Below are positions 1 through 21,665 of a DNA stretch of 64,000 nt, piece after piece. The first letter of the stretch is position 1; each line of letters starts with the position of its first letter. The position numbers were made by a program, and so were the translations under genes. Source of the DNA: a bacterium (lineage in GTDB: Bacteria > BMS3Abin14); assembly GCA_020350725.1 (NCBI GenBank), contig CP070719.1:43625-107624 (forward strand). Direction: 5' to 3'. The notes beneath the pieces are model-generated. The model did not search any database. It was given only the letters and a program-made list of their open reading frames with translations, and had not been told where the DNA came from.

Positions 1-837
1 CAGGAGCAGTGACAGTTGTCGGTAGGCGGCCGCATGCTTGGAGAGGTCATCGTAGATGCACAGGGAGTGCTGACCCTTGTCACGGAAGTATTCGCCCATG
101 GCACACCCTGCAAAGGGAGCCAGGAAGAGCAGCGGTGCCGGCTCGCTTGCCGAGGCGGAAACGACGATGGTGAAATCCATGGCGCCGTTCTCCTCGAGGT
201 CCCGGACAACCCGGGCTACGGTGGATTCCTTCTGGCCGATGGCGACATAGATGCATATGACCGGCGGGTCGGCGTTCTTCTGGTTGATGATGGTGTCCAC
301 GGCCACGGCCGTTTTGCCCGTCTGCCTGTCGCCGATGATGAGCTCCCTCTGTCCGCGCCCGATGGGGATCATGGAATCGACCGCCTTCAGGCCGGTCTGA
401 AGGGGCTGATTGACCGGCTGCCTCCGGACGATACCCGGAGCGATGACCTCAACGAGCCTGCTGGTCTCTGTCTCGATGGGCCCCTTGCCGTCGATGGGCT
501 GGCCAAGGGCATTGACCACCCTGCCCAACATACCCTCGCCCGCCGGCACCTCCACGATGCGGCCGGTCCTCTTGACGATGTCGCCCTCTTTGATGAGCTG
601 ATACTCACCGAGGAGCACGATCCCCACGTTATCCTCCTCCAGGTTCAGGATCATGCCGAAGACCTCTCCGGGGAGCTCCACGAGTTCGCCGGCCATGGCG
701 TTCTCCAGGCCGTGAACACGGGCGATCCCGTCACCGGTGGAGAGGACGATCCCGGTCTCCTTGACATCGATGGTCTTTTCAAAGCCCTGAATCTGTTTCT
801 TTATGATCTCGGTGATCTCTTCCGCTCGAATCTGCAT
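1..837 (-). CDS. atpA: F-type ATP synthase alpha subunit, N-terminal part (gene continues beyond window start)
   Basis: Reverse-strand translation from ATG at 835-837 reads [21 protein letters not shown]...[19 protein letters not shown] (Walker A); antisense to the spurious + ORF 16..1257; follows atpH in operon order. Confidence 0.9.
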
Positions 838-843: not shown

Positions 844-1389
844 CTATCTCCCCTTGCCAATGCTTTCTTTAACCTGATGCAGCTGGTTGCTCAGGCTGCC
901 GTCGTATACCTGTCCTCCCATGTAGGCCACTATGCCGCCCAGAAGGCCGGCGTCCACCTCCAGCTCGAGGATCACCTCCTTGCCGGACAGGCGGTTCAGA
1001 GCATCCTTGATCCTCTTCTCCTCCTCCTTGTCCAGGGCAACCGCCGTCACCACCCTGGCCCGGATCCGATTCGCCAGCTGGTCGGCAAATTCGATGTAGG
1101 CCTGACAGATCTCACCGACGCCCAGGATCCGTTTCTTCATCAGAAGGACATGGAGGAACTTGAGGGTCAGGTCCTTGATCTTGCCCCTGGCCAGGACCTT
1201 CTCGAGGATTTTTTCCTTGTCCTGAAGGGACACCGTCGGATCGGAAAAGGCGTGTAAGAGCTCGGGGCTCTGAGCGAAGATCGCCGCAACCCCTTGGAGA
1301 TCCTCTCCCACTTCCTTTATGATCCCCTGCTCATGGGCCAGGTCGATTACCGCTTTGGCGTAGCGCCGTGCGAGGACAAAGCCGATCAC
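844..1389 (-). CDS. atpH: F-type ATP synthase delta subunit (OSCP)
   Basis: 181 aa ORF; size, position between atpF and atpA, delta-subunit-like sequence. Confidence 0.85.
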   Translation of the reverse strand: MIGFVLARRYAKAVIDLAHEQGIIKEVGEDLQGVAAIFAQSPELLHAFSDPTVSLQDKEKILEKVLARGKIKDLTLKFLHVLLMKKRILGVGEICQAYIEFADQLANRIRARVVTAVALDKEEEKRIKDALNRLSGKEVILELEVDAGLLGGIVAYMGGQVYDGSLSNQLHQVKESIGKGR

Positions 1390-1390
1390 C

Positions 1391-1963
1391 TCAGTTAGCC
1401 TCCAGTTTTTCCAGGTATTCGCTGATAAAGCGCCTGTGGTCCTCAGGAGTCAGGTTCTCCTCGATGATCCCCCTTGCGATCTCCACTGAGGATTCGGCCA
1501 CCTCTTTTCGGAGGAGCGCCTGGGATTTTTTCAGTTCCTGTTCGATGGCCGTTCTGGCTTCCGTTTTCAGCTTCTCGACGGCCTCTTTCGCCTCGGCCAG
1601 GATCCTTTCCCTTTCCACCTCGCTCTCCTTTCGGGCGGCGGCGAGGAGTTCCTCGACCTCCCGATCGACTCCGGCGAGGCGGTCTTCGGCCTCTTTCATC
1701 CTGGCCTCGGCTTCCTTTCGGGCCTCCTCGGCGTCGCTGAGCGATTTGCGGACCGCATCAATGCTGCTCCGGATCCCATCCACAACGGGCCTGCGGGCAA
1801 AATAGAGGATAACGCCCATGAGGATGGTGAAATTGACGATCCTCAGGACCAGGTCCCAGATGGCTCTGCCCCCGCCTCCGCCGCCCTCCGCGGCGCCGGC
1901 CACCGCCGGCAGCACCAGAAGGACGGTCGTCACCAGGACTCTGAGCCCCAGCCGCGGACTCAT
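1391..1963 (-). CDS. atpF: F-type ATP synthase subunit b
   Basis: 190 aa; N-terminal TM helix then long charged coiled-coil (AEEARKEAEARMKEAEDRL...), operon position. Confidence 0.85.
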   Translation of the reverse strand: MSPRLGLRVLVTTVLLVLPAVAGAAEGGGGGGRAIWDLVLRIVNFTILMGVILYFARRPVVDGIRSSIDAVRKSLSDAEEARKEAEARMKEAEDRLAGVDREVEELLAAARKESEVERERILAEAKEAVEKLKTEARTAIEQELKKSQALLRKEVAESSVEIARGIIEENLTPEDHRRFISEYLEKLEAN

Positions 1964-2397
1964 GATCCACCTCCAACGGCCCGCCCCATGAGCTTTGACG
2001 CGATCCTCCCGGCCAGGCCCTCGGCCTCTGCCTTGAGCACCTTCCGGGAAGATTCCGCCTCGGCGGCCAAGGCTGCCCTGGCCTTGTCCAGCTCCCCGAC
2101 GTTCTCGATCTTGGTGTTCTGGACGGCCTCCCGGAAGAGGGCCATTGCCTCGCTCCGGTGGCCTGACCGCATGGCCATGGACTCCTGCTTGGCGGTGTGG
2201 AGTTTGGACTCGTACTCCTGGATGTTCTCCTGGGCCAGGGTCCCCAGCCGTTCCTTCAGCTCGGCCGATTCCCGGACCAGTTTCTCTCGTTCATCCAGGA
2301 CCTTGAGGATTGGCCTGAAGAGCAGAAAGTTTAGAACTACCAGCAATATCAAGAAGTTGGCGAGCTGTACCAGTAAGGTAAAGTTAACGTTGATCAA
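1960..2397 (-). CDS. atpF2: F-type ATP synthase subunit b'
   Basis: 145 aa; single N-terminal TM helix plus coiled-coil; start overlaps atpF by ATGA; second b-type gene typical of b/b' operons. Confidence 0.8.
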   Translation of the reverse strand: MINVNFTLLVQLANFLILLVVLNFLLFRPILKVLDEREKLVRESAELKERLGTLAQENIQEYESKLHTAKQESMAMRSGHRSEAMALFREAVQNTKIENVGELDKARAALAAEAESSRKVLKAEAEGLAGRIASKLMGRAVGGGS

Positions 2398-2533: not shown

Positions 2534-2791
2534 CTAGCCCTTTACAACGAAGATGAGGAGCAGGGCGACCACCAGGGCGTAGATGCCCGTGGACTCGGAG
2601 ACGGCCTGGCCGACCAGCATCGTCCTGGTCAGGAGGCCGGCCTCGTCCGGGTTTCTTCCTATCGCCTCACAGGCCTTGCCGGCGGCAAAGCCCTCTCCAA
2701 TGCCCGGGCCGATAGCGCCGAACCCCATGGCCAACCCCGCCCCGAGCAGGGCCGCCGCCCTGATGAGTTCTGCTCCTGTGATTCCGTCCAT
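2534..2791 (-). CDS. atpE: F-type ATP synthase c subunit, two-carboxylate Na+-type motif
   Basis: 85 aa hairpin; helix 1 [11 protein letters not shown], helix 2 [17 protein letters not shown]; aligns with Ilyobacter tartaricus c subunit (Q32->E here; E65, S66, T67, Y70 conserved). Confidence 0.9.
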
Positions 2792-2884
2792 TTACAAACC
2801 TCCTTGAGAACATTCAGATATAGGTGTTGATGCAACACCCCCGTGCGGGGGCTTTCCGTCAACCCAGCCCCAGGCCGAGCGCTC

Positions 2885-3628
2885 CTAAACGAGCATGACC
2901 AGGACCAGGGATATCACGAGGGCGTAGATGCTGGTCGACTGCGCCACTGCCTGTCCGAGCAGCATCACCCGTGTCAACAGGCCCACGCACGCTTCGGGGT
3001 TCCTGTGATGTCTGATGCCGATAATCGCCGACTCCGCCGCGATCCCCGAACCCACCGACGGCCCCATGGCGCCGAATCCCATGCAGATGCCTGCGGACAG
3101 CACGGCCACGAATTCGACGAAACCGGCGTCCGGTTTGGCGGGCAGGAAGATGAGCATAAAGGAGATCATGAGAGCGAAGATGACCGGCGTCTGGCTGACC
3201 GCCTGTCCCAGGAGCATCAGCGTCATGAAGGGCCTCCGAAGATGGGGCTGGCGGGCGATGGCCTCACAGGCCCAGGCGACGGGCAAAGAGCTCCCCACGC
3301 CCGAGGCGAAAGCGGCTGCGCCGATGGAGATCCCGGCCCCGAGGGCGGCAAAACCCTGGATCAGGGTGGCTCCCTGGATGTTTCCAAAGAGCAGGAGAAT
3401 GGCCACCACCAGGGCGAAGGTCGGCGGTGTCGAAGCCGCGGCCTGCCCGATAAGCATGCTGCGGAAGAGCTCTGAGGTCATTTTGGGCTGGCGTCCCATC
3501 CCCTCGCAGGCTGCCCCGCCCGCCATGCCGATGCCGATCCCCGCACCGACGGCACCGAGCCCGATGGCCAGGGCGGCCCCCAGCAGGTAGAGGGTTTTAA
3601 CAATCTCGGACGCAGCTACCGAATCCAT
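2885..3628 (-). CDS. ATP synthase c-subunit paralog: three fused c-type hairpins (6 predicted TM helices), all lacking the ion-binding carboxylate
   Basis: 247 aa; three repeats each with Gly-rich helix 1 and a GQA...helix 2 (GQAAASTPPTF / GQAVSQTPVIF / GQAVAQSTSIY); the position equivalent to the conserved Glu is S, Q, Q; sits between atpB and atpE. Confidence 0.75.
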   Translation of the reverse strand: MDSVAASEIVKTLYLLGAALAIGLGAVGAGIGIGMAGGAACEGMGRQPKMTSELFRSMLIGQAAASTPPTFALVVAILLLFGNIQGATLIQGFAALGAGISIGAAAFASGVGSSLPVAWACEAIARQPHLRRPFMTLMLLGQAVSQTPVIFALMISFMLIFLPAKPDAGFVEFVAVLSAGICMGFGAMGPSVGSGIAAESAIIGIRHHRNPEACVGLLTRVMLLGQAVAQSTSIYALVISLVLVMLV

Positions 3629-4325: not shown

Positions 4326-4709
4326 TTAATCCGACATGTCCTTGCCGATGAACTCGCCGGCAAACAGCATGACCTGGGCGCTGAACAGCGCCGGTATGGC
4401 TCCGCCCAGGGCAATGTTCTCGTTCAACCCGGCGTAGGCGAGAGCGACGGCCGTGACCGCCATCCTAAGTGCATACCTTGCCGCGGCCGGGCCGAAGACC
4501 TTTCCGCCCAGCGCCAGCGCCTGGCCGGGTATGCTGCGGGCCATCAACAGAAGGTTGACAAGGCTGACAGCCCCGCCGAGGGCGACGCCTCTGGCCCAGG
4601 GTTTCTTTCCCGCTAGGATAAGCAGTCCAGCGACCACCAAAACGAGCGCCAGGGTCCGGAAAAATATCTGCCTGACGTACCCTGAGAATGAAGCCTGCGG
4701 TGCGCTCAT
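4326..4709 (-). CDS. atpI: ATP synthase protein I-like small membrane protein
   Basis: About 127 aa hydrophobic protein immediately upstream of atpB; start placed at internal Met (MSAPQ...); assignment by position and hydropathy only. Confidence 0.5.
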   Translation of the reverse strand: MSAPQASFSGYVRQIFFRTLALVLVVAGLLILAGKKPWARGVALGGAVSLVNLLLMARSIPGQALALGGKVFGPAAARYALRMAVTAVALAYAGLNENIALGGAIPALFSAQVMLFAGEFIGKDMSD

Positions 4710-4752
4710 ACCCAAAATTGGGTATACAATATACTGTATCCCACTTCTATAA

Positions 4753-5181
4753 TCAATCGCCTTTTCCGACCTTGGCCTGCTCTTCCTGGTCGGCGGCACC
4801 CTTTCGCTCCTCCAGGGACGAGACCTTGCCCTCGCCCTGCGCCATGGAGCAGCTCCCCTCGAAGATCACCCCCTCCTCGATATGCAGTACAGGGGTCTTT
4901 ATGTTGCCGAAGAGTCTGCCCGGGCGGAGGACCTCCACCTTCCCCGTGGCCGCGACGTTTCCCCGCAGGGACCCGCTGACCACGACAGTGTGAGCGTTGA
5001 TCTCGGCATTGATCTGGGCGCTCTCGCCGACGATCAAGGTGTCCTTGGTGTAGATCTCCCCCTCCAGCTTTCCGTCCACGCGGACCGTACCCTCGAAGGT
5101 CAGGATGCCCTTGAATTCCGTTCCCTCACCGAGAAATGCCTTGATCTCTCCTCTTGCGCCGGCTGTCTCTTTCTTGATCAT
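4753..5181 (-). CDS. bactofilin family polymer-forming protein
   Basis: 142 aa; repetitive beta-helix-like pattern (GTVRVDGKLEGEIYTKDTLIVGESAQINAEINAHTVVVSGSLRGNV...) typical of bactofilin/CcmA. Confidence 0.7.
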   Translation of the reverse strand: MIKKETAGARGEIKAFLGEGTEFKGILTFEGTVRVDGKLEGEIYTKDTLIVGESAQINAEINAHTVVVSGSLRGNVAATGKVEVLRPGRLFGNIKTPVLHIEEGVIFEGSCSMAQGEGKVSSLEERKGAADQEEQAKVGKGD

Positions 5182-5291
5182 AACGATCCTCCCTTAAAAG
5201 GAGTGTTTGGTGTCACCGCCCTCAGTCAGATCCTGGTTTTTTGATCTGCTGTTCGGCTCTATCGCTCTGGCCATAACGGCGTGTTTCCGGT

Positions 5292-6146
5292 TCATCGCTT
5301 GAAGATCTTATCCACGATCCCGTTGAGTTCCTCAAGGCTGGAATAGGTGATCTCGACCCGTCCGCCCTTCTTCGTGTCCCGGATGCGGGCTTTGGTCCCG
5401 AGGTATCTCTCGAGACGTCTTTCCAGGTCCCTGATCTCAGGATCGGCCTGCGCCGGCTGCCGCCGGGCCGGTCGGTGGGCCTTGGCCCGGCCAACGATCC
5501 TCTCGACCTCGCGGACCGACAGGCCCATTTTCAGGATCCTGCCGAGTACGGAGCGAACGGAGGCCTCGTCCCGGAGGCCGATGAGGGCCCGGGCGTGCCC
5601 CGCCGATATCGTGCCCTTGATCAGCTCCTCCTTGACGAATTCCGGCAGCGACAGCAGCCTGAGGGCATTCGCAACCGTCGCCCTGTCCTTCCCGACCCTC
5701 TCCGCGATGTCCTCCTGGGTGAGGCCGTGCTGGCCCTGGAGCTCTCGGTAGGCCTGCGCCTCCTCGATGGGGTTGAGGTTTTCCCTCTGGATGTTCTCGA
5801 TGAGGGCCAGCTCCAGCCTGTCGTCGCCTATTCTCCTGACATGAACGGGGACCCTTTCCAGGCCTGCCAGTTTCGAGGCTCGCAGGCGCCTCTCGCCGGC
5901 CACCATCTCGTATCCACCCGGAACACGGTGGACCAGGATCGGCTGTATGACTCCCTTTTCCCGGATAGAGGCTGCCAGCTCCTCCAGACGCTCCCGGTCG
6001 AAGGCCCGCCTCGGCTGCTCCGGATTCGGGAAGACCTCCCCAATCGGGACCAGGAGGACTTCGCCCTGTTCCGCCGCTTCTTCTCCGCCCGGGATGAGGG
6101 CTCCAAGACCCTTGCCCAGCGCCTGTCTCTTCCTCTCTCTCGTCAT
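5292..6146 (-). CDS. parB: chromosome partitioning protein ParB
   Basis: 284 aa; ParB box GERRLRA, HTH region, adjacent to parA. Confidence 0.9.
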   Translation of the reverse strand: MTRERKRQALGKGLGALIPGGEEAAEQGEVLLVPIGEVFPNPEQPRRAFDRERLEELAASIREKGVIQPILVHRVPGGYEMVAGERRLRASKLAGLERVPVHVRRIGDDRLELALIENIQRENLNPIEEAQAYRELQGQHGLTQEDIAERVGKDRATVANALRLLSLPEFVKEELIKGTISAGHARALIGLRDEASVRSVLGRILKMGLSVREVERIVGRAKAHRPARRQPAQADPEIRDLERRLERYLGTKARIRDTKKGGRVEITYSSLEELNGIVDKIFKR

Positions 6147-6188
6147 GAGCTCCCTCTGCAGCCTGGCGGTCCTCGCTCCCCGTCCCTT

Positions 6189-6962
6189 CTACCGGCCTCT
6201 GTCCTCTCCGTTGAGCAGTTCCTTGGCCAACTGGAGATATCCCTGGGTCCCCGACGAGCGGATGTCGTAGAGGATCACCGGTTTGCCGTGACTGGGGGCC
6301 TCGCTGAGCTTGACGTTCCTGTGGATGACTGTCCTGAAAACCTTTCCGGGAAAATACTTTCTCGCCTCTCCTGCCACCTGGTGGGACAGGTTGTTTCTGG
6401 GGTCGAACATCGTCAGGAGGATCCCCTCGAGGAGGAGGCCCGGGTTGAGGGCCCCCCTGACGAGCTTGATCGTGTTCAGAAGCTTACTGAGCCCCTCCAG
6501 GGCATAGTATTCGCATTGCAGGGGGACAAGGACCGTGTCTGCCGCCGTCAGGGCGTTCAGGGTGAGGAGGCCCAGGCTCGGCGGACAATCTATGATCACG
6601 AAGTCGTAGTCTCCCCTGACGTCCTTGATGGCCCTGGCCAGGAGGGTCTCCCTCGACAGGGCGGTGACCAGCTCGACCTCGGCTCCGATGAGGTCCACGT
6701 GGGAAGGGGCCAGCTTGAGGTGTTTGAGATCGGTGTCCACCACGATGTTCTGGATGGATTCCTGATCGACGAGGACCTGATAGATGGAACGGTCAAGGGT
6801 CGACGGGTCCACCCCGACACCGCTGGTGGCGTTGGCCTGGGGGTCCACGTCCACCAGAAGGGTTCTCCTCTCGGCGGCTGCCAGGGACGCCGCCAGGTTG
6901 ATGGCAGTGGTTGTCTTGCCGACACCGCCCTTCTGATTGGCTATCGTGATGACCTTTCCCAT
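6189..6962 (-). CDS. parA: chromosome partitioning ATPase ParA/Soj
   Basis: Deviant Walker A KGGVGKTTT; start set at internal Met (MGKVITIANQKGG...). Confidence 0.9.
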   Translation of the reverse strand: MGKVITIANQKGGVGKTTTAINLAASLAAAERRTLLVDVDPQANATSGVGVDPSTLDRSIYQVLVDQESIQNIVVDTDLKHLKLAPSHVDLIGAEVELVTALSRETLLARAIKDVRGDYDFVIIDCPPSLGLLTLNALTAADTVLVPLQCEYYALEGLSKLLNTIKLVRGALNPGLLLEGILLTMFDPRNNLSHQVAGEARKYFPGKVFRTVIHRNVKLSEAPSHGKPVILYDIRSSGTQGYLQLAKELLNGEDRGR

Positions 6963-7261
6963 AGTTCTTATTGACGCCGCGGCCCGGGACCCGGACATCC
7001 GGCTGCGTTCTGTTTAAGCCGGACACCGGACTGGGACGGGGCTGAGTCTCCCCTCTGCCATGGGCCCATGAACCCATTTTGTCCCCATAACCTCTTAAAA
7101 ATAAACAGGTTTAATGGTTGTTTTGCCCCTCCAGGAACGTTTTCCACGGGGATCAGCCTGACATGGGTTCTGGGACCCGGCACCTCATTTCGTCCGGAGT
7201 ATGAAAACTAATATATGGCGGGGAAAATGGCAATGAAGAAAAACACCCCGGGCAGGGAGTG

Positions 7262-7277
7262 TGTTTCACGTGAAACA
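7262..7277. other. parS centromere-like site (perfect 16-bp palindrome TGTTTCACGTGAAACA)
   Basis: Exact match to the ParB-binding parS consensus; located in the rsmG-parA intergenic region. Confidence 0.85.
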
Positions 7278-7351
7278 TTCTGTCCGGCAGCGGCGGCGTG
7301 GAACCGTCAGGGGCCCGGCTTGTGGACTTCCGGAACCACCCGAGGTCGCCA

Positions 7352-7984
7352 CTAGCGCATGTCCCGGGCCTCCACCAGCCAGATCACGGTCGGCAGATCC
7401 GACCCGGGAAGCCGGTAAGGGTGGATGGTTCCTGGTCCCCGGGAGGCGAGGCTTTCCGAGGTGAAGATCATCGCCCGGCCTTCCTCGGCCAGGAAGGGGG
7501 CGGCCGCTTTCAGGATGGCGCCGGGCTTGGCGGCCGCCCGGGACACAGCCACGTCGAAGCTTCCGGCCATCCCGCCCTCAAGGACCCGGTCGAATCTTCC
7601 TTCGGCCACCTCGGCACCAGAAAGGTTCAGGGTTCGCACCACATGTCTCAGGAAAGCGCACTTTTTCCCCGAGGACTCCACCATCACCAGGGTGAGGGAG
7701 GGTCGGACGATTTTCAGGGGCAGGCCGGGAAAGCCGGCGCCTGCGCCGAGGTCCACCAGGCGCTCCTCGCCTTCCAGGAGCCCCATGGACAGGGGGACCA
7801 AAGAGTCCAGGAAGTGGACTCTCACCCAATCGGGCTGTTTCCTGGAGACCAGGTTCACCCTCCGGTTCCAGCGCTCCAGCTCCCGGCAGTACAGAAAGAG
7901 CTTTTCCGCCGCCCCTTCGCCGACCGGGACATTCAGCGTCGCAGCCCCGATCGTCACGGAATCGATGAACTCTGTTCTATTCAC
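7352..7984 (-). CDS. rsmG: 16S rRNA (guanine527-N7)-methyltransferase RsmG (GidB)
   Basis: 210 aa; SAM-binding LVDLGAGAGFPGLPL; conserved gidA-gidB-parAB neighbourhood. Confidence 0.85.
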   Translation of the reverse strand: MNRTEFIDSVTIGAATLNVPVGEGAAEKLFLYCRELERWNRRVNLVSRKQPDWVRVHFLDSLVPLSMGLLEGEERLVDLGAGAGFPGLPLKIVRPSLTLVMVESSGKKCAFLRHVVRTLNLSGAEVAEGRFDRVLEGGMAGSFDVAVSRAAAKPGAILKAAAPFLAEEGRAMIFTSESLASRGPGTIHPYRLPGSDLPTVIWLVEARDMR

Positions 7985-8020
7985 GGTCCTTCGGCCGCGA
8001 CCTGAGAGCCCTTGGACAGG

Positions 8021-9937
8021 CTAGGTCCGGCCCCCCCCGGCAGGATCGCCTTCCGGATCCCGGCCCCTGTTGCTCCCCGCCAGGTAAATCATCAGGGCGG
8101 ACACCGCCGCCGGCGTGACGCCCGGTATCCGGCTGGCCTGGCCCAGCGTACGGGGCCTCACTCCTTCCAGCTTCTCCCTCACCTCCGCCGATATCGCTCC
8201 CAGGGACGAATAGTCGATATCCTCCGGAATCCGCAGGCTCTCGAGGTGTCTCATCTTCTCGACCATCGCCTCCTGGCGTCTGATATAACCTTCATATTTG
8301 ACCTGGATCTGGACCTGGTCGGCAACGTCCCTCCGCTCTGCGGGCTCGAATCCGGGGTTATATTCCGTCAGGTCCCGGTAGGAGACCTCCGGCTGCCGGA
8401 GGGCATCGAAAAGGAGCGATCCCTGCCTGGGTGCCCCCTCGCCCAGGTCCACCGTCACCCGGTGCCTGCCCAGCCTCTCTATCTCCTCCTCGATCAGACG
8501 CGCCTTTTCTTTCGTGGTCTCCGCTTCTTCGGCGGTTATGAGGCCGACGGCGTGTCCCTTGTCCATGAGGCGGAGATCGGCATTGTCCTCCCTGAGGAGG
8601 AGCCGATGCTCCGCACGGGACGTCAACAGGCGATAGGGCTCGGATGTTCCCTTGGTCACCAGATCGTCGACCAGGACACCGATGTAGGACTCGTTGCGGC
8701 CGAGGACCAGGGGAGGGTCACCCTTCACCCGAAGGCCGGCATTGATTCCAGCGACCAGGCCCTGGCCGGCTGCCTCCTCGTAACCCGAGGTGCCGTTGAT
8801 CTGACCGGCCAGGAACAGGCCCGGCACGGATTTAACCTGGAGATCGGGGCCGAGCTGTGTGGGATGCACGAAGTCGTACTCGATGGCGTAACCGGGTCGC
8901 ATGATCTGCACCTCCTCGAGGCCGGGGATCGTACGCAGCATCTCGAGCTGGACGTCAATGGGGAGCCCGGTGAACATTCCGTTCGTGTAGATCTCCCTCG
9001 TGGAAAGGCCCTCCGGCTCGAGAAAGAGCCGGTGGCCGGTACGTCCGGGAAAGGCCCTCACTTTGTCCTCGACGCTGGGGCAGTAGCGGGGAGGCGCCCC
9101 CGTCATCACCCCGGAGATCATGGGCGAGCGATCGAGGTTGTCCGCAATGATCCTGTGGGTCTTCTCGTTGGTCCTGGCGATCCAGCAGGGCACCTGGTCT
9201 CTCTCGATCCGGTGGTTCCTGAAGGAGAAGGGGACAAAATCCGGATCGCCGTTCTGGGGCGTCAGGGGCCGAAAATCAATGGTCTTGGCGTCCAGCCGCG
9301 GCGTGGTGCAGGTCATGAGCCTTCCCATCCGCAGGCCGAGGCCGGCGAGGGCCGCCGACAGGGAAACGGCCGCAAACTCACCGGCCCTGCCTGCCGCGTA
9401 CCGGGTGTCACCGATGTGTACCATGCCGTTGAGAAACGTTCCCGAGGACACGACGACCGTCCGGGCCGGGAATTCCTCTCCCGCCTGGGTATGGACCCCG
9501 ACCACCTGCGCCCCGTCCATGAGGAAGCCCTCCGCCAGGCCCTGTTTGATGTGGAGCCGCTCCTGTCCCTCCAGCTTCTCCTTCATCCACGTCTTGTACT
9601 GGAGCATGTCGGCCTGGGCTCTTGAGGAGCGGACAGCCGGACCCTTCCGGGTGTTGAGGCGGCGGAACTGAATGCCGGTGGCGTCGATCGCCTGGGCCAT
9701 GACCCCCCCCAGAGCATCGATCTCCCTCACCACATGCCCTTTGGCGAGGCCCCCGATGGCGGGGTTGCAGGACATCTGGGCGATCTGGTCGATGGAAATC
9801 GACAGGAGAAGGGTCTCCAGCCCCATCCGGGCCGCTGCCATAGCTGCCTCGCATCCGGCGTGTCCGCCGCCGACCACAACCACATCGTATTGTGTAGAGG
9901 GGCGGAATCCCTTCGTCCGCCGATGGTCCCTATTCAT
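8021..9937 (-). CDS. mnmG: tRNA uridine 5-carboxymethylaminomethyl modification enzyme MnmG (GidA)
   Basis: FAD-binding N-terminus YDVVVVGGGHAGCEAA; start set at internal Met of the 655 aa ORF. Confidence 0.9.
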   Translation of the reverse strand: MNRDHRRTKGFRPSTQYDVVVVGGGHAGCEAAMAAARMGLETLLLSISIDQIAQMSCNPAIGGLAKGHVVREIDALGGVMAQAIDATGIQFRRLNTRKGPAVRSSRAQADMLQYKTWMKEKLEGQERLHIKQGLAEGFLMDGAQVVGVHTQAGEEFPARTVVVSSGTFLNGMVHIGDTRYAAGRAGEFAAVSLSAALAGLGLRMGRLMTCTTPRLDAKTIDFRPLTPQNGDPDFVPFSFRNHRIERDQVPCWIARTNEKTHRIIADNLDRSPMISGVMTGAPPRYCPSVEDKVRAFPGRTGHRLFLEPEGLSTREIYTNGMFTGLPIDVQLEMLRTIPGLEEVQIMRPGYAIEYDFVHPTQLGPDLQVKSVPGLFLAGQINGTSGYEEAAGQGLVAGINAGLRVKGDPPLVLGRNESYIGVLVDDLVTKGTSEPYRLLTSRAEHRLLLREDNADLRLMDKGHAVGLITAEEAETTKEKARLIEEEIERLGRHRVTVDLGEGAPRQGSLLFDALRQPEVSYRDLTEYNPGFEPAERRDVADQVQIQVKYEGYIRRQEAMVEKMRHLESLRIPEDIDYSSLGAISAEVREKLEGVRPRTLGQASRIPGVTPAAVSALMIYLAGSNRGRDPEGDPAGGGRT

Positions 9938-10028
9938 GGAACAACCCTCGAGCAAATGCCGGGATATCCGGCCGGGCCGCCAACACACCCGTTCCCCTGT
10001 CCGAGCCGTCCTCCGGGTACCCCATCAT

Positions 10029-10044
10029 TGTTTCACGTGAAACA
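10029..10044. other. parS centromere-like site (second perfect copy TGTTTCACGTGAAACA)
   Basis: Identical 16-mer to the site at 7262; in the mnmE-mnmG intergenic region. Confidence 0.85.
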
Positions 10045-10150
10045 CTCAATGCCCTGCCCCCGGGTTCTTCGCCGCATGGGCGGCTCCGCTTGGGTCACGG
10101 CCTTTATGAAAATCTGTTAACGCCATCAGGGAACGGCGGGCTTTTCGCTG

Positions 10151-11536
10151 TTACTTGCCGATGCAGAACCGGGAGAAGATCTCGTCGAGGACCATGTCGG
10201 CGGTCATCTCGCCGGTGAGCTCACCGATCCTCATCATGGCATCGCCTACATCAACCGCCACCAGTTCCGGATCGACACCTCCCTCCAGGCCGGCAGCGGC
10301 CCTCTCGCACGCTTCCTTGAGCCCGTTGAGGGCCTCGGCCTGTCGGACGGAGGTGACAACGCCTCCTTCCAGGCCAACGGGTTCCCCGCCCCGGTCCAGA
10401 ACGTGCCGATGAATGGCCGCCTTGAGGTCTTCCAGCCCGTGTCCGGTTTTCGCGGACACGGACACCGCCCCGCCGGGAGGACCGGCATCGGCAGGGTGCA
10501 GGTCGGATTTGTTGGCCACGATCACTCTGGCGACGCCCTCCGTTTCCCCGAGGAGGGACATGTCGCCCCGTCCGGGGGGCCTCGATGAGTCCAGAATGAT
10601 CAGCAGCAGGTCGGCCCTCTCCATCATCCTTCTCGTCCTCAGGACGCCCTCCACTTCCACGCCATCGGCCGCCTCTCTGATGCCCGCGGTATCCACCACC
10701 TTCACCGGAATGCCGTGGGCGTCGATCCTTCCCTCGATGAAATCTCTGGTCGTTCCGGCCATCTCATGGACGATGGCCCTCTCCTCGCCGAGGAGGGCGT
10801 TCAGGATGCTGGATTTCCCCACGTTGGGCGTTCCGATGATGACGGCGGAGAGGCCCTCCGACAGGGCGATGCCCTCCCGTGCGGTGGAAAGGAGCTTCCG
10901 GGTCAGGGCCAGTGCGTTTCGGGTGCATTCGAGGGCGCGGCCAGGCTGTATGTCGCCCTCGATCTCCTCCGGAAAGTCGATGGACGCTTCGAGGAGGGCC
11001 TTTACCTCCAGCAGGTTTCTCCTGATGGCGGCAGCTTCCCGCCCGGTCGCCCCCTCAACCTGCCGCAGCATCACCCTGCGGGCCTGATCCGTGGAAGCGT
11101 GGACGAGCCTGGCGACCGCCTCGGCCTGCGACAGATCCATCCGCCCATTGAGGAATGCCCGGCGGGTGAACTCACCCGGGTCCGCCAGGCGGGCCCCCGC
11201 CTCCAGAGAGGCCTCCAGGATGGCCTTCATGATGAGAGGTCCGCCGTGAGCGGTGATCTCGACGACGTCCTCTCCGGTGTACGACCTCGGTTGCTGAAAG
11301 AAGAGGAGGAGCGCCTGGTCAATGGGGTCGGATGCCGCGCCCGGGCGATGGGAGTGGCCCACCAGGGCCCGCCGCGGCTCCGGCGGAAAGGAGCGCCAGC
11401 CGGTCCGGGGAGTGAATACGGTCCGCGCCACCTCCAGGACCCGGGGCCCGCTGATGCGCACCATGCCTATCCCCCCGGGGCCGGGTGGGGTGGATACGGC
11501 GACGATCGTGTCCGTTCCTGGTCCTGTCCTTGCCAT
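10151..11536 (-). CDS. mnmE: tRNA modification GTPase MnmE (TrmE)
   Basis: 461 aa; G-domain GTPNVGKSS, C-terminal CIGK motif. Confidence 0.9.
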   Translation of the reverse strand: MARTGPGTDTIVAVSTPPGPGGIGMVRISGPRVLEVARTVFTPRTGWRSFPPEPRRALVGHSHRPGAASDPIDQALLLFFQQPRSYTGEDVVEITAHGGPLIMKAILEASLEAGARLADPGEFTRRAFLNGRMDLSQAEAVARLVHASTDQARRVMLRQVEGATGREAAAIRRNLLEVKALLEASIDFPEEIEGDIQPGRALECTRNALALTRKLLSTAREGIALSEGLSAVIIGTPNVGKSSILNALLGEERAIVHEMAGTTRDFIEGRIDAHGIPVKVVDTAGIREAADGVEVEGVLRTRRMMERADLLLIILDSSRPPGRGDMSLLGETEGVARVIVANKSDLHPADAGPPGGAVSVSAKTGHGLEDLKAAIHRHVLDRGGEPVGLEGGVVTSVRQAEALNGLKEACERAAAGLEGGVDPELVAVDVGDAMMRIGELTGEMTADMVLDEIFSRFCIGK

Positions 11537-11607
11537 CTCACACAGAGGTGTCGGTGCCGCTCGGCGCAGGCCAGAGGAGGCCGGACCTCTCCCCGTCGTC
11601 TCCCGGC

Positions 11608-13308
11608 CTACTTCTTCCCCTTGCCCTTCTTGACCTTGACCGGCTCGGGCTCAGGAAGGCTCTTGTCGTCCCTCTTGTTCAGATAGTACTGGTGGCCTAT
11701 GGTGAGGACGTTGTTGACCAGCCAGTAGATGACCAGGCCGGCCGGAAAATTGAGGAAGAGGGCGGTAAACATGATGGGCATGAAAAGCATGATCTTCTGC
11801 TGCCTGGGGTCCCCCGCGGCGGGCGTCATCTTCTGCTGGAGGAACATGGTGCCGCCCATGATGATGGGCGTTATGTAGTAGGGATCCTTGGCGGACAGAT
11901 CGGTGATCCAGAGGAAGAACGGAGCGTGTCTCAGCTCAATGGCCCCCAGCAGGGCCCGGTAGAGGGCAAAGAACACCGGAATCTGGACCAGGATGGGCAG
12001 GCAGCCACCCGCCGGGTTGACCCGGTGCTCCCGGTAAAGGGCCATGATCTCCTGGTTCAGTTTTTCCCGATCCTTCTTGTACCTCTCTCTCAGGGCGTTG
12101 ATCTGCGGGTTGAGCCGGCTCATCTTCTTCATGGACCGGTGGCTGGCCGTGGAGAAGGGGATGAAAAATATCTTGATCAAAATGGTCAGGATGATGATCG
12201 ACAACCCGTAATTCTTGACATATTTGTAAAAGAAATTGAGGAGGTCCATCAGCGGCTGGGCGATGAAACCGAAGAAGCCAAGGTTGATGGTCTTGCGGAG
12301 GGTCTCGTCCACAGTCCTGAGGGAGACCATCTCCTTCGGTCCGATGTAGACGAGCGCCTTCATCGCCGACGCCTGCCCCGTGAGCAGCCTCACCTGGGAG
12401 GTGAGAGCCACCCCCATTCTCCCGTCTTCCTGCTTCCGGGCAAGGGAACCGTCCGCTCCGCTGACCGGGATCATGGCGGCGGTGAAATACATGTCGGTGG
12501 TCGCGATCCATTGGGGCAGATATTCCAGGTCCTGCGTTCCGTCCACCTTTCCCGGCTTGATCTTCCTGGTCTTGTCGCCGACGAGGGCCAGTGCTCCCTG
12601 ATACCCGTACCGTCCTCCCCCGAAGGGTCCGCCCTCCTTCTCTTCCGCCAGGGGCTCGAGGCCGGGCTCCCAGACCAGGGAGAGCCTGCCGTTCAATGGG
12701 GCTGGACCGCGATTGAGGATCTTCACGTCTGTTTTGATGCCGTAATTGTCGCCGGAGAAGGTGAAGGTCTTGACCATCTCGAGGCCCTCCTCCGTCCGGA
12801 AGCGGAATCCTGCGGACGCCTCCTGGCCTTCCTCGATCAACATGTCGCGCCCCTCTATGACGAACAGGGCGTCCTGCAGGCCGAGCGGTCCGCCCGCCGC
12901 GGTGAACTCGGCGCTGAGGGGCAATGTTTCCGCCCGGGGTGACCGGACCATCTCGACGAAGGATTCGGGCTCTCTGGGATCCTCAAGGAACTTCATGAGC
13001 CGATAGCTCTTGATGCCTCCACCCCGGTTGGTGAGAACCGCCGTATATAGAGGCGTTCGAACGACGACCTGCTTCTCGGCCGACTCCTGCAGGGCGCCGG
13101 GACCCTCTTCCGGGAAAACCTCTCCGGTTTCCGGTGGCGGCAGAAGACCTGCGTCTGGCTCCCGGTCGGCCGGGACGATCTCCTCGACAACCGGCCCGGT
13201 CTCCTCCTCCGGCGTGGGGGGAGACGGAGCGAAATACGACTGCCAGACGAAGAGAAACACGAAGGAGATAGCAACGGCTAATATCAGGCGTTTTATCTGG
13301 TCATCCAT
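11608..13308 (-). CDS. yidC: membrane protein insertase YidC
   Basis: 566 aa; N-terminal TM, large periplasmic domain, C-terminal multi-TM core and basic tail; conserved position. Confidence 0.9.
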   Translation of the reverse strand: MDDQIKRLILAVAISFVFLFVWQSYFAPSPPTPEEETGPVVEEIVPADREPDAGLLPPPETGEVFPEEGPGALQESAEKQVVVRTPLYTAVLTNRGGGIKSYRLMKFLEDPREPESFVEMVRSPRAETLPLSAEFTAAGGPLGLQDALFVIEGRDMLIEEGQEASAGFRFRTEEGLEMVKTFTFSGDNYGIKTDVKILNRGPAPLNGRLSLVWEPGLEPLAEEKEGGPFGGGRYGYQGALALVGDKTRKIKPGKVDGTQDLEYLPQWIATTDMYFTAAMIPVSGADGSLARKQEDGRMGVALTSQVRLLTGQASAMKALVYIGPKEMVSLRTVDETLRKTINLGFFGFIAQPLMDLLNFFYKYVKNYGLSIIILTILIKIFFIPFSTASHRSMKKMSRLNPQINALRERYKKDREKLNQEIMALYREHRVNPAGGCLPILVQIPVFFALYRALLGAIELRHAPFFLWITDLSAKDPYYITPIIMGGTMFLQQKMTPAAGDPRQQKIMLFMPIMFTALFLNFPAGLVIYWLVNNVLTIGHQYYLNKRDDKSLPEPEPVKVKKGKGKK

Positions 13309-13684
13309 GGTGCAGCCTTTCTCTGTGGGATATCAGGCCCCGGCGACCGATCGCCGGCGGGCATGGCCGGAGAAGGCCCTTCTTCCTCGATCCCGGCCCC
13401 TCGATATCAGGCTGATCGTCCGGTGAGGCCGGCTTTCCTTTTCCCGGCAGCTCCGCCTCTTCCCTGCGGACGATCCCGGGCACAGGGTCGTATCCGCTCC
13501 TCCCCAGGGGGTGACACCTCAGAAGCCGTCCCGCGGCCAGGAAGCTTCCCCTGGCGGCACCGTGGACCTCAATGGCCTCCAGGGCGTAAAGAGAGCAGGA
13601 CGGAAGGTATCGGCATGATCCGGGGAGCGCCGGCGAGATCCAGGTTCGATAGACGCTGATCAGGGCAAGCAGAAACCTTTTCAT
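13301..13684 (-). CDS. yidD: membrane protein insertion efficiency factor YidD
   Basis: N-terminal YRTWISPALPGSCRYLPSCSLYALEAIEVHG matches YidD; C-terminal extension uncertain. Confidence 0.75.
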   Translation of the reverse strand: MKRFLLALISVYRTWISPALPGSCRYLPSCSLYALEAIEVHGAARGSFLAAGRLLRCHPLGRSGYDPVPGIVRREEAELPGKGKPASPDDQPDIEGPGSRKKGLLRPCPPAIGRRGLISHRERLHHG

Positions 13685-14055
13685 TGATCTTTCCCGAGGA
13701 GAAGACCGGCCTGGCCGGCAAGCTCGAGAAGCTCCCGTTCCAGGTCAGCGAAGCGGGCGCTCTGCGCCCCTTTTCTGGGTATGACGATGATATCGTACGC
13801 GGGGATAAACCGGTCTCTGTTGAGCCGCTGGATCTCGCGGATCCTCCTCTTAATCCTGTTTCTGCTGACCGCGTTGCCGTGCTTTCGGGATACGGTCTGT
13901 CCGAATCTGGTGGTGGTCAATCCGTTGGCAACGGATAAGAGGACGAGGTGTCGGCCCTGGACCCTGATCCCCCCTTGCTGTGCCCTGAGGAAATCCGAGC
14001 GAGAGCGGACGCGGCAGAGACGGGGAAAGGACCGTCGGGGGCTCTCTGTTTTCAG
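13681..14055 (-). CDS. rnpA: ribonuclease P protein component
   Basis: Basic protein with RNR motif region ([14 protein letters not shown]); no in-frame ATG after rpmH, so start is uncertain (possibly non-canonical near 14055). Confidence 0.65.
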
Positions 14056-14186
14056 ACTGTCAGACGTTTTCTTCCCTTTGCCCGCCTTCTCTTCAGGATC
14101 AGGCGGCCTGAGCGGGTCCGCATCCGGATTCTGAACCCATGTGTCCTCTTCCGGCTGATATTGCTGGGCTGGTAGGTCCTCTTCAA
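14052..14186 (-). CDS. rpmH: 50S ribosomal protein L34
   Basis: 44 aa, below the ORF-track size cut-off; hand translation from TTG at 14186 gives [44 protein letters not shown]; AGGAGG 7 nt upstream. Confidence 0.8.
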
Positions 14187-14651
14187 GATGAATCCTCCTG
14201 ATACGACATAACATCCCGGGAACACGTTCCGCGGCGGAGCTCGCGTTTCTCCTCTACAGGGTAACTCAGAAGCATGCGAATAAAATGTAGAACGTGCCTA
14301 TATAACAGAGAAACGGCCGTTATTCAAGACGATTCTGGACAGAGTGAGCGGTGCAGCGGGGGTGGAGGAGGGAAATCTGCCGCCGGCGGGTCAATACGGT
14401 CCGGAAGCGGGCATAGCGCCCGTCCGATCCGTTTGTTTTATCTCCCTCCGACCACCATCTGTCCCTTTTCTCTTGAACAATCATGGGCCAATCTGATATA
14501 TCAGTTGCTTGCCCCCCGAGAGAAGGGAGCAGGGGGGGCACGGCCCTCATTTTCGATTAATACACAGTCGGCCGCACTGTCCTGGGGGGGGCCCCGTTTC
14601 CGCAGAATCGAACATCCGATAAGTACCTGAGAAAACGCTTTTTTTCCTTGC

Positions 14652-14760
14652 TGTTCCACATATTAACAGCGGGTGTGAAGAGGAACCTTCAGGGGGGGTT
14701 TTTAACCTTCTATGTCCCTGTTTTAAATAGCTTTTTTGGGTTTTCCACAGGTGTGGATAA
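14652..14760. promoter_or_regulatory. DnaA boxes in dnaA upstream region (TGTTCCACA at 14652-14660; inverted pair TTTTCCACA / TGTGGATAA at 14741-14760)
   Basis: Matches to TTATCCACA consensus (one perfect reverse-complement copy) 70-180 bp upstream of dnaA start. Confidence 0.6.
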
Positions 14761-14829
14761 GGCTGTGTGTAACTGGCAGGGTTTCAAACGGGGTTTTACT
14801 CCTTACAAACACCCATAACTAAACGAAAA

Positions 14830-16200
14830 ATGCCCGCTTCAAAACTCTGGAAAGAGATTCTGACAAACCTCCAGGGAGAGGTCAACCCACAGATCTTCTC
14901 CACCTGGTTCGACCCTCTCGTCCCGGTTGACATCGAGGGCGGCAGGCTTGTCCTGGAGGCACCCCACGCCTTCATCCGCGACTGGATCGAGGAGAACTAT
15001 GCCACCACCCTGAACCGCATCGTTCAGTCCCTGACGGGGAAGGATCTGTCGGTCCTGATATTGGTCAGCGAAGGCGGCGCTCCAGAGCCGCCTCCCGCCA
15101 GGAAGCGTCCCAAGAAACCCGCCCGGGAGGCCTCGCCCCCCAAACAGGAGGTCGGAGGGTTCGGAAACGGCGGTCTGAATCCCAAGTACACGTTCGACTC
15201 TTTCGTCGTCGGGTCTTCCAACCAGTTCGCCCACGCCGCCGCCATGGCGGTATCGGAACACCCGGCCAGATCGTACAATCCCCTTTTCGTCTACGGCGGC
15301 GTGGGGCTCGGCAAGACACACCTGATGCATGCCATCGGCCACATGGCCCTTTCCCGAGATCCGAGCCTGCGCCTCTGCTACCTGTCCAGTGAACGCTTCA
15401 TGAACGAGCTGATCAACTCCCTGCGTTTCGACCGCATGCCCCAGTTCCGGGAGATGTACCGGACCATGGACATCCTCCTGGTGGACGACATCCAGTTCAT
15501 TGCCGGCAAAGAACGGACCCAGGAGGAATTCTTCCACACCTTCAATACCCTCTTCGATTCCCACAAGCAGATCGTCGTCTCCTCCGACAAGTACCCCCGC
15601 GAGATACCGGACCTCGAGGAGCGCCTGCGGTCCCGGTTCGAGTGGGGCCTCGTGGCCGACATTCAACCGCCTGACCTGGAGACAAAGATAGCCATCCTCA
15701 ACAAGAAGGCGGCCCAGTCGGGCATCGCCCTCCCTCCGGACGTGTCGCTTTTCCTCGCGGAGAACACGGCTTCCAACATCCGGGAGCTGGAGGGTTTCCT
15801 CCTCCGCATAGCGGCCTTCGCCTCCATCAAGAAAACGACCAAGATCAGCATGGATCTGGTCAACGATGCCCTGCGTAATTTCCTGGATCAGAAGAGGAAG
15901 ATCATCACCGTTGAGGACATCAAAAGAAAGGTGGCCTCCAAGTACAACATCAAGGTGTCGGATATTAAATCCAAGAAGAAGAACAAGACCTTCATTCTCC
16001 CCCGCCACATTGCCATGTATCTGACCCGCCAACTCACGGATCTCTCCCTGCCCGAGATCGGCAGGAGCTTCGGCGGCCGCGACCACACAACCATCATCCA
16101 CGCCATCAACAAGGTGGAGAAGATGTTGTCTGATTCCCCCGAATTCGCCGACAACGTCAACAGGCTCACCAAGGAGATCGAAAACGGCAACCACCACTGA
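14830..16200 (+). CDS. dnaA: chromosomal replication initiator protein DnaA
   Basis: 456 aa; AAA+ Walker A GGVGLGKTHLMHAIG, C-terminal DNA-binding domain. Confidence 0.95.
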   Translation: MPASKLWKEILTNLQGEVNPQIFSTWFDPLVPVDIEGGRLVLEAPHAFIRDWIEENYATTLNRIVQSLTGKDLSVLILVSEGGAPEPPPARKRPKKPAREASPPKQEVGGFGNGGLNPKYTFDSFVVGSSNQFAHAAAMAVSEHPARSYNPLFVYGGVGLGKTHLMHAIGHMALSRDPSLRLCYLSSERFMNELINSLRFDRMPQFREMYRTMDILLVDDIQFIAGKERTQEEFFHTFNTLFDSHKQIVVSSDKYPREIPDLEERLRSRFEWGLVADIQPPDLETKIAILNKKAAQSGIALPPDVSLFLAENTASNIRELEGFLLRIAAFASIKKTTKISMDLVNDALRNFLDQKRKIITVEDIKRKVASKYNIKVSDIKSKKKNKTFILPRHIAMYLTRQLTDLSLPEIGRSFGGRDHTTIIHAINKVEKMLSDSPEFADNVNRLTKEIENGNHH

Positions 16201-16259
16201 TCCTAAGGGGCTCGCCCGGCGCGGTATCCTGAGTCTGTCCACGCCCGTCTGTTCGCAAC

Positions 16260-16520
16260 CCTGTTTACATTCCTGTGGACCTTTCTGTGGACCTTTCTGT
16301 GGAATGCCGCACCTGTGGATGAACGTGGGCTCTTCAACAGATCCGTCCACAGCGACGCCGGAATCTGTTGTCCAATAACTTCATGCAGTTAACCGCCCAT
16401 ACCCCCAATCCACAGTTCCTTCTTTACCTACTACTATCTTTTTTTATATAATAACTAGAAGTGCTAAGTGTTGCTTTACGGTGTGACTTTTTCCATATAA
16501 AATACGCAGAGATTCCGGAC
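16260..16520. other. probable replication origin (oriC): DnaA-box-like repeat cluster plus AT-rich DNA unwinding element
   Basis: Tandem TGTGGAC/TGTGGAA/TGTGGAT motifs with 12-bp spacing around 16275-16325, further box-like ATCCACAG near 16410, then a strongly AT-rich stretch (about 16430-16500) in a GC-rich genome; between dnaA and dnaN. Confidence 0.55.
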
Positions 16521-17820: not shown

Positions 17821-17823
17821 TCC

Positions 17824-21578
<3,755 letters not shown>

Positions 21579-21665
21579 GGAGAAAAGACATCGACCGCCG
21601 GAAACAGGAGGCCGGCAGAGGACGGCCGGTCCGCGGTCCCATAGGGGAGTGAAACGGGAAGATAT

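Follow-up and report, generated by a model that had tools for sequence, protein, structure and literature searches.

The DNA analysed here, a 64,000-nt stretch of the bacterial contig CP070719.1 that we call the window, carries in its first 4.8 kb, on the minus strand, an F-type ATP synthase operon in which a fused, three-hairpin paralogue of the rotor subunit c, named tri-c below, lies between the genes for subunit a and the normal subunit c. The gene and protein evidence comes from the list of open reading frames (ORFs) and from matches to Pfam and NCBIfam profiles, and the ORFs and Pfam together give the gene order atpI-atpB-tri-c-atpE-atpF'-atpF-atpH-atpA:

4326..4709, minus strand: atpI-like gene (PF03899); the mechanical ORF reaches 4799, and the likely start, an ATG at 4709, gives 127 aa
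3637..4308, minus strand: atpB, subunit a, 223 aa (PF00119, E 2.7e-49, match spanning the full length)
2885..3628, minus strand: tri-c, fused three-hairpin c paralogue, ATG start, 247 aa (ORF and PF00137)
2534..2791, minus strand: atpE, single-hairpin subunit c, 85 aa (ORF and Pfam)
1960..2397, minus strand: atpF', subunit b' (PF00430)
1391..1963, minus strand: atpF, subunit b (PF00430)
844..1389, minus strand: atpH, subunit delta, OSCP (PF00213, E 1.4e-46)
1..837, minus strand: 5' part of atpA, first 279 codons of subunit alpha (from the translation; the gene runs off the window)

The 127-aa length of the atpI-like gene is also called on an independent contig (L003). The atpB protein contains the motif S-F-R-L-F-G-N, which we take to hold the conserved stator arginine known from Escherichia coli as aR210, and a GDRQTGKT stretch in the atpA part is P-loop-like in appearance. 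The tri-c gene starts 8 nt past the atpB stop and ends 93 nt ahead of atpE, and these are the only two c-type genes within the window. A preliminary description of this DNA had reported a 247-aa ORF of three c-type hairpins between atpB and a normal atpE, and this is borne out by the ORF map and by three separate stretches of tri-c that match PF00137 (ATP-synt_C; E 7.4e-36, 122.6 bits vs a cut-off of 24). The three hairpins, each assigned to a class recognised across the family described below, are:

3377..3628, minus strand: hairpin 1, 'first' class, aa 1-84, with I33 and S66
3131..3376, minus strand: hairpin 2, 'middle' class (Q-T-P-x-I-F), aa 85-166, with S113 and Q146; loop A-R-Q-P kept
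2885..3130, minus strand: hairpin 3, 'last' class (Q-S-T-x-I-Y), aa 167-247, with S194 and Q230; S231, T232 and Y235 kept

The profile to which each hairpin was aligned combined the normal c of the window with solved c subunits, as given in PDB alignments, of Acetobacterium woodii, Fusobacterium nucleatum and Ilyobacter tartaricus. The reference carboxylate of helix 2 is E66 in the window's c and E65 in I. tartaricus, and its helix-1 partner is E33 and Q32, respectively. In tri-c the carboxylate position is taken by S66, Q146 and Q230 (codons tcg at 3431-3433, cag at 3191-3193 and cag at 2939-2941), and the partner position by I33, S113 and S194, the I/S/S series already noted in the preliminary description. 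The three substituted motifs that it listed, GQAAASTPP, GQAVSQTPV and GQAVAQSTS, are all present, and the alignment places no acidic residue at the ion position of any hairpin. The membrane-embedded Glu/Asp of the outer helix is absent from all three hairpins, and the acidic residues that tri-c contains (D2, E8, E42, E53, E122, D167, E172, E199 and E212) are found at helix ends or in loops, none of them in the membrane core.

The neighbouring atpE retains both E33 and E66 (11-residue motif), which together with S67, T68 and Y71 form a two-carboxylate Na+-type motif that aligns with the c subunits of F. nucleatum (3zk1) and I. tartaricus (1yce); it is the two-carboxylate Na+ motif of the F. nucleatum type (PMC3692424). 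Judged by these residues, the coupling ion of the enzyme is probably Na+. Compared with c subunits that form 11-mers, the window's c carries one extra residue, inserted in helix 1.

The features that a c hairpin needs for packing in a ring and for contact with the central stalk are kept in tri-c. The cytoplasmic loops (RQP, RQP and RNP) and the GxGxGxG-type runs of helix 1 are present in all three hairpins and are invariant across 50 homologues, the invariant columns including G28, G32, G34, Q47, R126, Q127, P128, G189, G193 and G195. In hairpin 1 the lost site is embedded in the motif S66-T-P-P-T-F71, found in 51/51 sequences of the zero-site clade, and the loop of hairpin 3 is longer (R-H-H-R-N-P-E) and contains an invariant His208. 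Hairpins 1, 2 and 3 share up to 69%, 77% and 77% identity, respectively, with relatives outside the zero-site clade.

Several lines of evidence confirm, at the level of sequence, that tri-c is a real, conserved gene, neither artefact nor pseudogene. Contigs from the independent assemblies of four sequencing runs encode an identical 247-aa protein, as does the 2.78-Mb chromosome of a metagenome-assembled genome (MAG; NCBI UCF30911.1). Orthologues were found at eight loci of the genome collection. More than 50 cluster representatives, reaching down to 60% identity, have an unbroken reading frame, and an alignment of 50 three-hairpin homologues shows 52 invariant columns. Compared with the orthologues of three MAGs (81%, 76% and 87% identity), tri-c has ratios of nonsynonymous to synonymous substitution rates (dN/dS) of 0.085, 0.154 and 0.072, at a dS of ~1.0-1.4. 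Taken by hairpin, the values are 0.06-0.25, hairpin 1 being the most relaxed (0.07-0.25) and hairpin 3 the most constrained (~0.06), so that every hairpin is under purifying selection; for the neighbouring atpE they are 0.01-0.05.

The three-hairpin topology proposed earlier is also supported by the predicted structure. The AlphaFold2 model, computed on the 50-homologue alignment, has six helices arranged as three hairpins (pLDDT 94.1, pTM 0.88), with predicted helix breaks exactly at residues 66 and 146. Among solved proteins, the one closest in both sequence and fold is A. woodii c1 (4bem_J; E 4e-19, root-mean-square deviation 1.5 Å over 161 columns), followed in fold by V-type proteolipids, and each match to a rotor subunit covers about two of the three hairpins.

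Tri-c is part of a larger family of fused c paralogues with two to six hairpins, which the preliminary description had missed, together with an E-Q-Q one-site ancestral form that, as read from the sequences, is still present in a syntenic sister lineage. The first homologue search gave 1027 matches, and the architectures were read from the 120 best, which fall into length classes of ~247, 324 and 404 aa. When the residue at the carboxylate position is written hairpin by hairpin, the patterns among the best 120 are:

SQQ: 39
SQH: 12
EQQ: 3 (P0027, P0029 and P0038, sister sequences with the site kept)
EQQQ: 21
EQQE: 10
EQQQQ: 33
EQQQE: 1
QQQQQ: 1

The zero-site three-hairpin clade of the window makes up 51 of these 120 matches. 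Across the family, most members keep a single site, located in the first hairpin, with the patterns EQ, EQQ, EQQQ, EQQQQ and EQQQQQ. The genome-collection scan gave a two-hairpin EQ protein (L013, from a MAG labelled Omnitrophota) and a 489-aa, six-hairpin EQQQQQ protein (L012:5504-6973), which has a normal c directly after it. A search seeded with a five-hairpin member returned 2370 matches at E <= 1e-20, many of them six-hairpin proteins (481-490 aa, P0274-P0299) that would have a larger gap of site-less positions than tri-c, and a representative library at 50% identity contributed further fused forms. All chains combine a 'first' hairpin, which bears the site if there is any, a variable number of 'middle' hairpins (Q-T-P-x-I-F) and a 'last' hairpin (Q-S-T-x-I-Y). 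The carriers are MAGs labelled Proteobacteria, Deltaproteobacteria, Desulfobacterales, Thermodesulfobacteriota, 'bacterium' and, in one case, Omnitrophota, and their isolate prefixes presumably denote hydrothermal sulfide (SZUA), cold seep (CSMAG) and Zodletone spring (Zod_Metabat) habitats. As regards a cultured carrier, the second homologue search and two cluster look-ups gave only MAG or unnamed records.

The operon position is conserved as well. A single-hairpin c with E33 and E66, whose motif consists of G or A and ten further residues, directly follows the fused gene in 13/13 loci that extend beyond it (L001-L004, which are independent assemblies of the window's own gene, L005-L008 and L011-L015). 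A fourteenth locus, L018, has the same layout, with a c that reads GQAISESTGIY, and the fused gene follows atpB wherever upstream DNA is present. Homologous fused genes, looked for as the preliminary description had suggested, thus occupy the same slot in related genomes. At one of these loci (L014), a one-site EQQ three-hairpin gene (P0029) is found in exactly the same synteny as in the window, the order being mnmE, mnmG, rsmG, parA, parB, bactofilin, atpI, atpB, fused c, c, b', b, delta, alpha, gamma, beta and epsilon; the delta-alpha-gamma-beta-epsilon order is present in both L014 and L018. In a neighbour-joining tree, the one-site three-hairpin sequences all group together. Because of this clustering and of the identical synteny of L014, the zero-site state is most simply read as a secondary loss of the last site in a three-hairpin lineage with an E-Q-Q ancestor, a single-loss scenario that relies on the outgroups being E-type in a tree that is midpoint-rooted only. 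The STPPTF motif of hairpin 1 was acquired after the site had been lost.

Further variants of the fused and long c chains were observed. In one subclade of the zero-site proteins (P0043, P0045, P0047, P0050, P0065-P0067, P0074, P0079, P0085, P0091, P0093 and L018:6001-6747), the carboxylate position of the last hairpin is occupied by His (AVAHASCIY), a protonatable residue in place of Glu, and the c adjacent to the His-type fused protein of L018 is unchanged. Apparent zero-site fused c proteins also occur outside the window's clade, namely P0089 (L016:1131-2357), P0142, P0137, P0148 and P0233, with the patterns QQQQQ in five hairpins, SQQQ in four, and SQQ or GQQ in three; the P0089 contigs are too short to show a downstream c. 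This distribution suggests that all sites were lost on more than one occasion. The four- and five-hairpin carriers L005:6671-10361 and L015:6657-10696 have their Fo genes in a separate cluster (atpZ-like, atpI, atpB, fused c, c, b', b), with F1 genes not found within the fetched 8-kb flanks, whereas Fo and F1 are contiguous in the window's lineage. The representative library also contains chains of 5 to at least 12 c hairpins with Glu in every hairpin (P0140, 1139 aa; P0230, 968 aa; P0240, 631 aa; P0251, 524 aa; P0129, 434 aa), which resemble the 'whole rotor in one chain' of Methanopyrus kandleri. Finally, four-hairpin c proteins of ~315-321 aa (P0168-P0273, ~30% identity to the query) recurrently show E-Q-E-D/E, or three sites per four hairpins.

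The residues retained at each hairpin position indicate how a fused chain might fit among normal c subunits. The Na+ ligands of Enterococcus hirae NtpK are E139 and Q110, both from hairpin 2, and T64 from hairpin 1; those of I. tartaricus are E65 and Q32 from one subunit (A) and S66 from another (B) (PMC2359735). From the composition of these sites it follows that a hairpin donates its Ser/Thr to the site of the hairpin that comes next. The Tyr is likewise donated to the following hairpin's site, as in the I. tartaricus structure. Outside the window's clade, T68 and Y71 are kept together only in the last hairpin (67/69), and F71 is found in all 69 first hairpins and in 149 of the 170 middle ones; A. 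woodii c1 has this F-then-Y pattern too (...ETSGIF, then ...QTTGIY). Retention of T68 and Y71 in the last hairpin would be expected if this hairpin abuts a normal c and completes its Na+ site.

The signals for expression differ between the two c-type genes. Those recognised in the operon are:

2799..2805, minus strand: Shine-Dalgarno (SD) sequence AAGGAGG of atpE, 7 nt upstream of its start
4728..4756, minus strand: promoter-like TTGATT-17-TATATT upstream of atpI, from a consensus scan that gave 3 sites vs 0.9 expected (weak evidence)

Upstream of tri-c there is only a weak AGGGG, and the calculated energies of the duplex with the anti-SD sequence in the window are -12.1 kcal/mol for atpE vs -5.6 kcal/mol for tri-c. 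Across 10 loci the fused gene ranges from -3.0 to -8.8 kcal/mol and atpE from -9.5 to -12.5 kcal/mol, the fused gene being weaker in all 10, and a near-perfect GGAGG precedes atpE in each. The fused gene starts 1-26 nt past the atpB stop, often with GTG or TTG. This asymmetry fits an enzyme with few fused copies and many copies of c. A terminator scan of the operon gave no more matches than chance, the site upstream of atpI is the sole promoter-like one, and an Rfam scan of the window found nothing. A structured RNA in the interval between tri-c and atpE (2792..2884), as a possible cause of their differential expression, was considered and rejected, as the fold is no better than that of shuffled sequences (z = -0.22).

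We propose that tri-c is a subunit of the rotor ring which brings in three null positions side by side and reduces the number of ions used per ATP, and assign this reading a probability of roughly 0.6. The host enzyme would be the main, oriC-proximal F1Fo ATP synthase of the organism. One or a few copies of tri-c would co-assemble with many copies of the single-hairpin c, and the resulting hetero-oligomeric ring would have three neighbouring hairpins that carry no ion, their adjacency being guaranteed by the fusion. With neutral Gln or Ser in place of the carboxylate, the null hairpins would be able to pass the lipid and the arginine of subunit a with neither binding nor release of an ion, and the ring would then carry three ions fewer per turn than its number of hairpins suggests. 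As an illustration only, a ring of 11 hairpins with one tri-c would carry 8 ions instead of 11, or 2.7 vs 3.7 ions per ATP. The principle would be that of A. woodii c1, with its one null hairpin, extended to three in a paralogue that contributes no site of its own.

We infer the incorporation of tri-c into the ring, its copy number and its effect on the ratio from several features. Tri-c occupies the atpE1 slot of an F-type operon, and its closest characterised relative, c1, is a proven ring component; the ring-packing and central-stalk-contact features are kept in all three hairpins; and purifying selection, the series of two- to six-hairpin relatives, the ligands retained in last hairpins and the SD asymmetry all argue in the same direction. 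The hetero-oligomeric ring raised in the preliminary description thus fits the architecture of the family, the packing and loop motifs, the SD asymmetry and the selection, and keeps the status of a proposal. In an engineered single-chain c10 ring of Bacillus PS3, paired site defects were better tolerated when adjacent than when dispersed (PMC8809890), and this supports a ring role since covalent fusion enforces precisely such adjacency.

Other observations weigh against this proposal. With an 11-hairpin ring, three null hairpins would by our estimate require ~100 degrees of rotation without ion-driven ratcheting, and we know of no F-type motor shown to do this. In the PS3 fused c10, a single E56Q abolished ATP synthesis (PMC8809890). 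The invariant STPPTF places two prolines where the site used to be and hints at a newly arisen constraint that a simple null spacer would not account for, and the His-rich loop of hairpin 3 (R-H-H-R-N-P, with the invariant H208) points to another constraint that the model leaves unexplained. Ligand retention is incomplete, as 18/51 last hairpins of the three-hairpin clade have F71 and 18/51 have P68, and L014 and L019 read QSP(G/S)VF (QSPGVF in the one-site sister L014, where atpE is unchanged). Finally, the placement of tri-c in the ring derives from genes and sequences rather than from a structure or an experiment.

Part of this evidence would also suit a tri-c that sits in the ring as a brake or latch, with the motor stalling or idling when the null hairpins reach subunit a, an explanation we regard as rather unlikely. 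Such a device could help an energy-starved anaerobe to curb futile ATP hydrolysis or leakage of ions; alternatively, the enzyme could work, like the V-ATPases, mainly as a high-gear Na+ pump driven by ATP. The loss of ATP synthesis in the PS3 ring with a single E56Q speaks for it (PMC8809890), null positions are no obstacle to an ATP-driven rotor, and the conserved His-rich loop of hairpin 3 could fix the angle of the gap relative to the central stalk. However, the operon of L014 and L018, with a full F1 set and a conserved oriC-proximal position, looks like a housekeeping one, as judged from the locus rather than from genome-wide ATPase content; the A. woodii ring contains a null hairpin and still supports ATP synthesis (PMC9171764); and the stepwise range from one to five null hairpins, spread over many lineages, resembles tuning more than it does an on/off latch.

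The constraint imposed by STPPTF can also be taken as a sign of a role outside the rotor, with tri-c acting as a static partner of subunit a, as a scaffold for assembly or sizing of the c-ring that is absent from the mature enzyme, or in some other membrane function. The residue that defines the function of a c subunit is missing from tri-c, and the tight spacing to atpB suggests 1:1 production with a stator subunit. We nevertheless consider this improbable, given that the R-Q/N-P stalk-contact loops and the glycine packing motif of helix 1 are conserved in all three hairpins, that the last hairpin keeps neighbour-completing ligands in the window's subclade, and that one-site relatives (EQQ, EQQQ and others) share the architecture and have a site that is useful only in a rotor. 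Decay of tri-c into a functionless paralogue, a pseudogene in progress, might be suspected from the loss of all ion-binding carboxylates and from hairpin 1 being the fastest-evolving; it is very improbable and effectively refuted, as neutral evolution would give an omega of ~1 in place of 0.07-0.15 (at saturated dS), and as the in-frame cluster representatives, the invariant columns and the high-confidence AlphaFold2 model also oppose it. The last alternative, an assembly or frameshift artefact joining tandem normal atpE copies, has nothing in its favour and is refuted by hairpins that are only 36-40% identical to each other and 40-57% to the adjacent atpE, by the four independent runs and the MAG chromosome, and by the orthologues at eight loci, 60-87% identical and with the same pattern.

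The ion/ATP ratio of rotary ATP synthases sets the ATP yield per membrane potential and is believed to be determined by the c-subunit count; to our knowledge, the single null hairpin of A. woodii c1 is the sole documented bacterial exception of the F-type. Tri-c, with three null hairpins and no site, and its relatives with up to five challenge the laboratory result that one E-to-Q exchange kills the motor. A natural 'gearbox', in which fused c proteins with one to five consecutive null hairpins are built into the rotors of F-type ATP synthases of many uncultured anaerobes, is a broader proposition that we advance tentatively, placing it a little below even odds. Were it true, an F-type motor would remain coupled while turning across a gap of ~100 degrees or more, and the Na+/ATP ratio, genetically set by the number of fused null hairpins, could be as low as, or below, any measured (2.7 or less). 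The fused family would in addition provide a natural series for studying the a/c interface at site-less positions and the reach of elastic coupling, and could reveal how the bioenergetic gear is tuned in anaerobes that live close to the thermodynamic limit. Annotations everywhere name these proteins merely 'ATP synthase F0 subunit C', and for this reason metabolic reconstructions count a fused c as an ordinary c.

Around the atp operon, the window contains an oriC-type neighbourhood (4753-24113). Its bactofilin has a Pfam match, the labels parB, parA, rsmG, mnmG and mnmE were carried over from the Pfam matches of the syntenic loci L014 and L018 to window ORFs that were themselves unscanned, and yidC is presumably present as well; ORFs at 16.7-24.1 kb are dnaN-, recF-, gyrB- and gyrA-like by order and size only. 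The bactofilin-atpI junction is kept in L014, L018 and L019. Elsewhere in the window, a CAP12/Pycsar-effector TIR domain protein (34124-35098, minus strand; PF10137, E 3e-12) lies near an AAA_21/AbiEii-like ATPase (36997-37884, plus strand), and the two may form a small anti-phage defence islet. A methylenetetrahydrofolate reductase (33106-34035, plus strand; PF02219, E 3.5e-91) is the sole hint of C1 metabolism in the window, and two ORFs with high GC content at third codon positions, of 772 aa (40974-43292, plus strand) and 373 aa (59210-60331, minus strand), have no Pfam match at E <= 0.001.

Among known systems, the closest to tri-c is AtpE1 (c1) of A. woodii (4BEM), also found in Clostridium aceticum; the c1 gene likewise lies in an F-type operon, with atpB on one side and a single-hairpin atpE on the other. 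Both proteins have Gln for Glu in the null motif (GQAVAQTTGIY in c1, GQAVAQSTSIY in tri-c), and tri-c resembles the c1 type in the Glu-to-Gln exchange of its null hairpins (Q146, Q230) and in keeping S231, T232 and Y235 in the last one. In contrast, c1 has two hairpins and one Na+ site and adds one null position, whereas tri-c has three hairpins (six helices) and no site and would add three. The partner c also differs, with E33/E66 here and a Q in helix 1 of A. woodii c2/3, and the 1:9 stoichiometry with the single-hairpin c is that of A. woodii, a comparable minor share of tri-c being suggested indirectly by the SD asymmetry. The one-site family members (P0029/L014, P0096/L005, P0053/L015 and L012) resemble tri-c in their place in the operon, in the succession of first, middle and last hairpins and in the E/E c that follows, and differ in having a two-carboxylate site in the first hairpin, where the window's clade has I/M33, S66 and STPPTF. 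The literature searched contained no publication on this one-site group, which is thus known as database entries only.

Triplication of the proteolipid is known from the A1Ao enzyme of Methanocaldococcus jannaschii (PMC2359735). Its subunit K/c is similar to tri-c in linking three hairpins in one chain with fewer sites than hairpins, but belongs to an archaeal A-type enzyme with a homo-oligomeric ring, whereas tri-c would be a minor partner of a single-hairpin c. Ruppert et al. reportedly found in 1999 that the M. jannaschii proteolipid keeps two carboxylates. The 16-kDa proteolipids of V-ATPases (E. hirae NtpK, 2BL2; eukaryotic c, c' and c'') also consist of fused hairpins with lost sites, and their folds match two hairpins of tri-c (TM-score ~0.8 normalised to the target, 14-26% identity); unlike tri-c, they have V-type sequences and operons, and always one site per polypeptide. 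Identity of tri-c as a V/A-type K subunit (NtpK) was rejected, the best NCBIfam K model giving 47.1 bits vs a cut-off of 211 in an operon that is F-type, and so was identity as an N-ATPase subunit c (TIGR03322, 77.6 bits vs a cut-off of 130.85). N-ATPase operons are defined by atpQ/atpR and by their gene order; neither gene was seen in this operon, which has atpI and atpH in standard F-type order.

In the literature consulted, fused c subunits with lost sites are described only in V-type and archaeal enzymes (with 1, 2, 3 or 13 hairpins) and, for bacteria, only in A. woodii and C. aceticum, whose c1 has two hairpins and one site (PMC9171764, PMC7911925, PMC2359735). A 2026 paper on Desulfatiglans reports 'two to four atpE copies', with no mention of fusion (PMC13343851). 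The full-text literature searched, whose scope did not extend to Brandt and Müller 2015 (Biol Chem 396:1031) or Matthies et al. 2014, contained no description of an F-type c with at least three hairpins or with zero sites, so that tri-c is undescribed as far as could be checked. Its laboratory analogue is the engineered PS3 c10 (E56Q/E56D), likewise made of fused F-type hairpins of which some have no working carboxylate. One E56Q is enough to abolish ATP synthesis in that ring (PMC8809890), whereas in tri-c hairpins with Gln or Ser at this position are maintained in nature under purifying selection.

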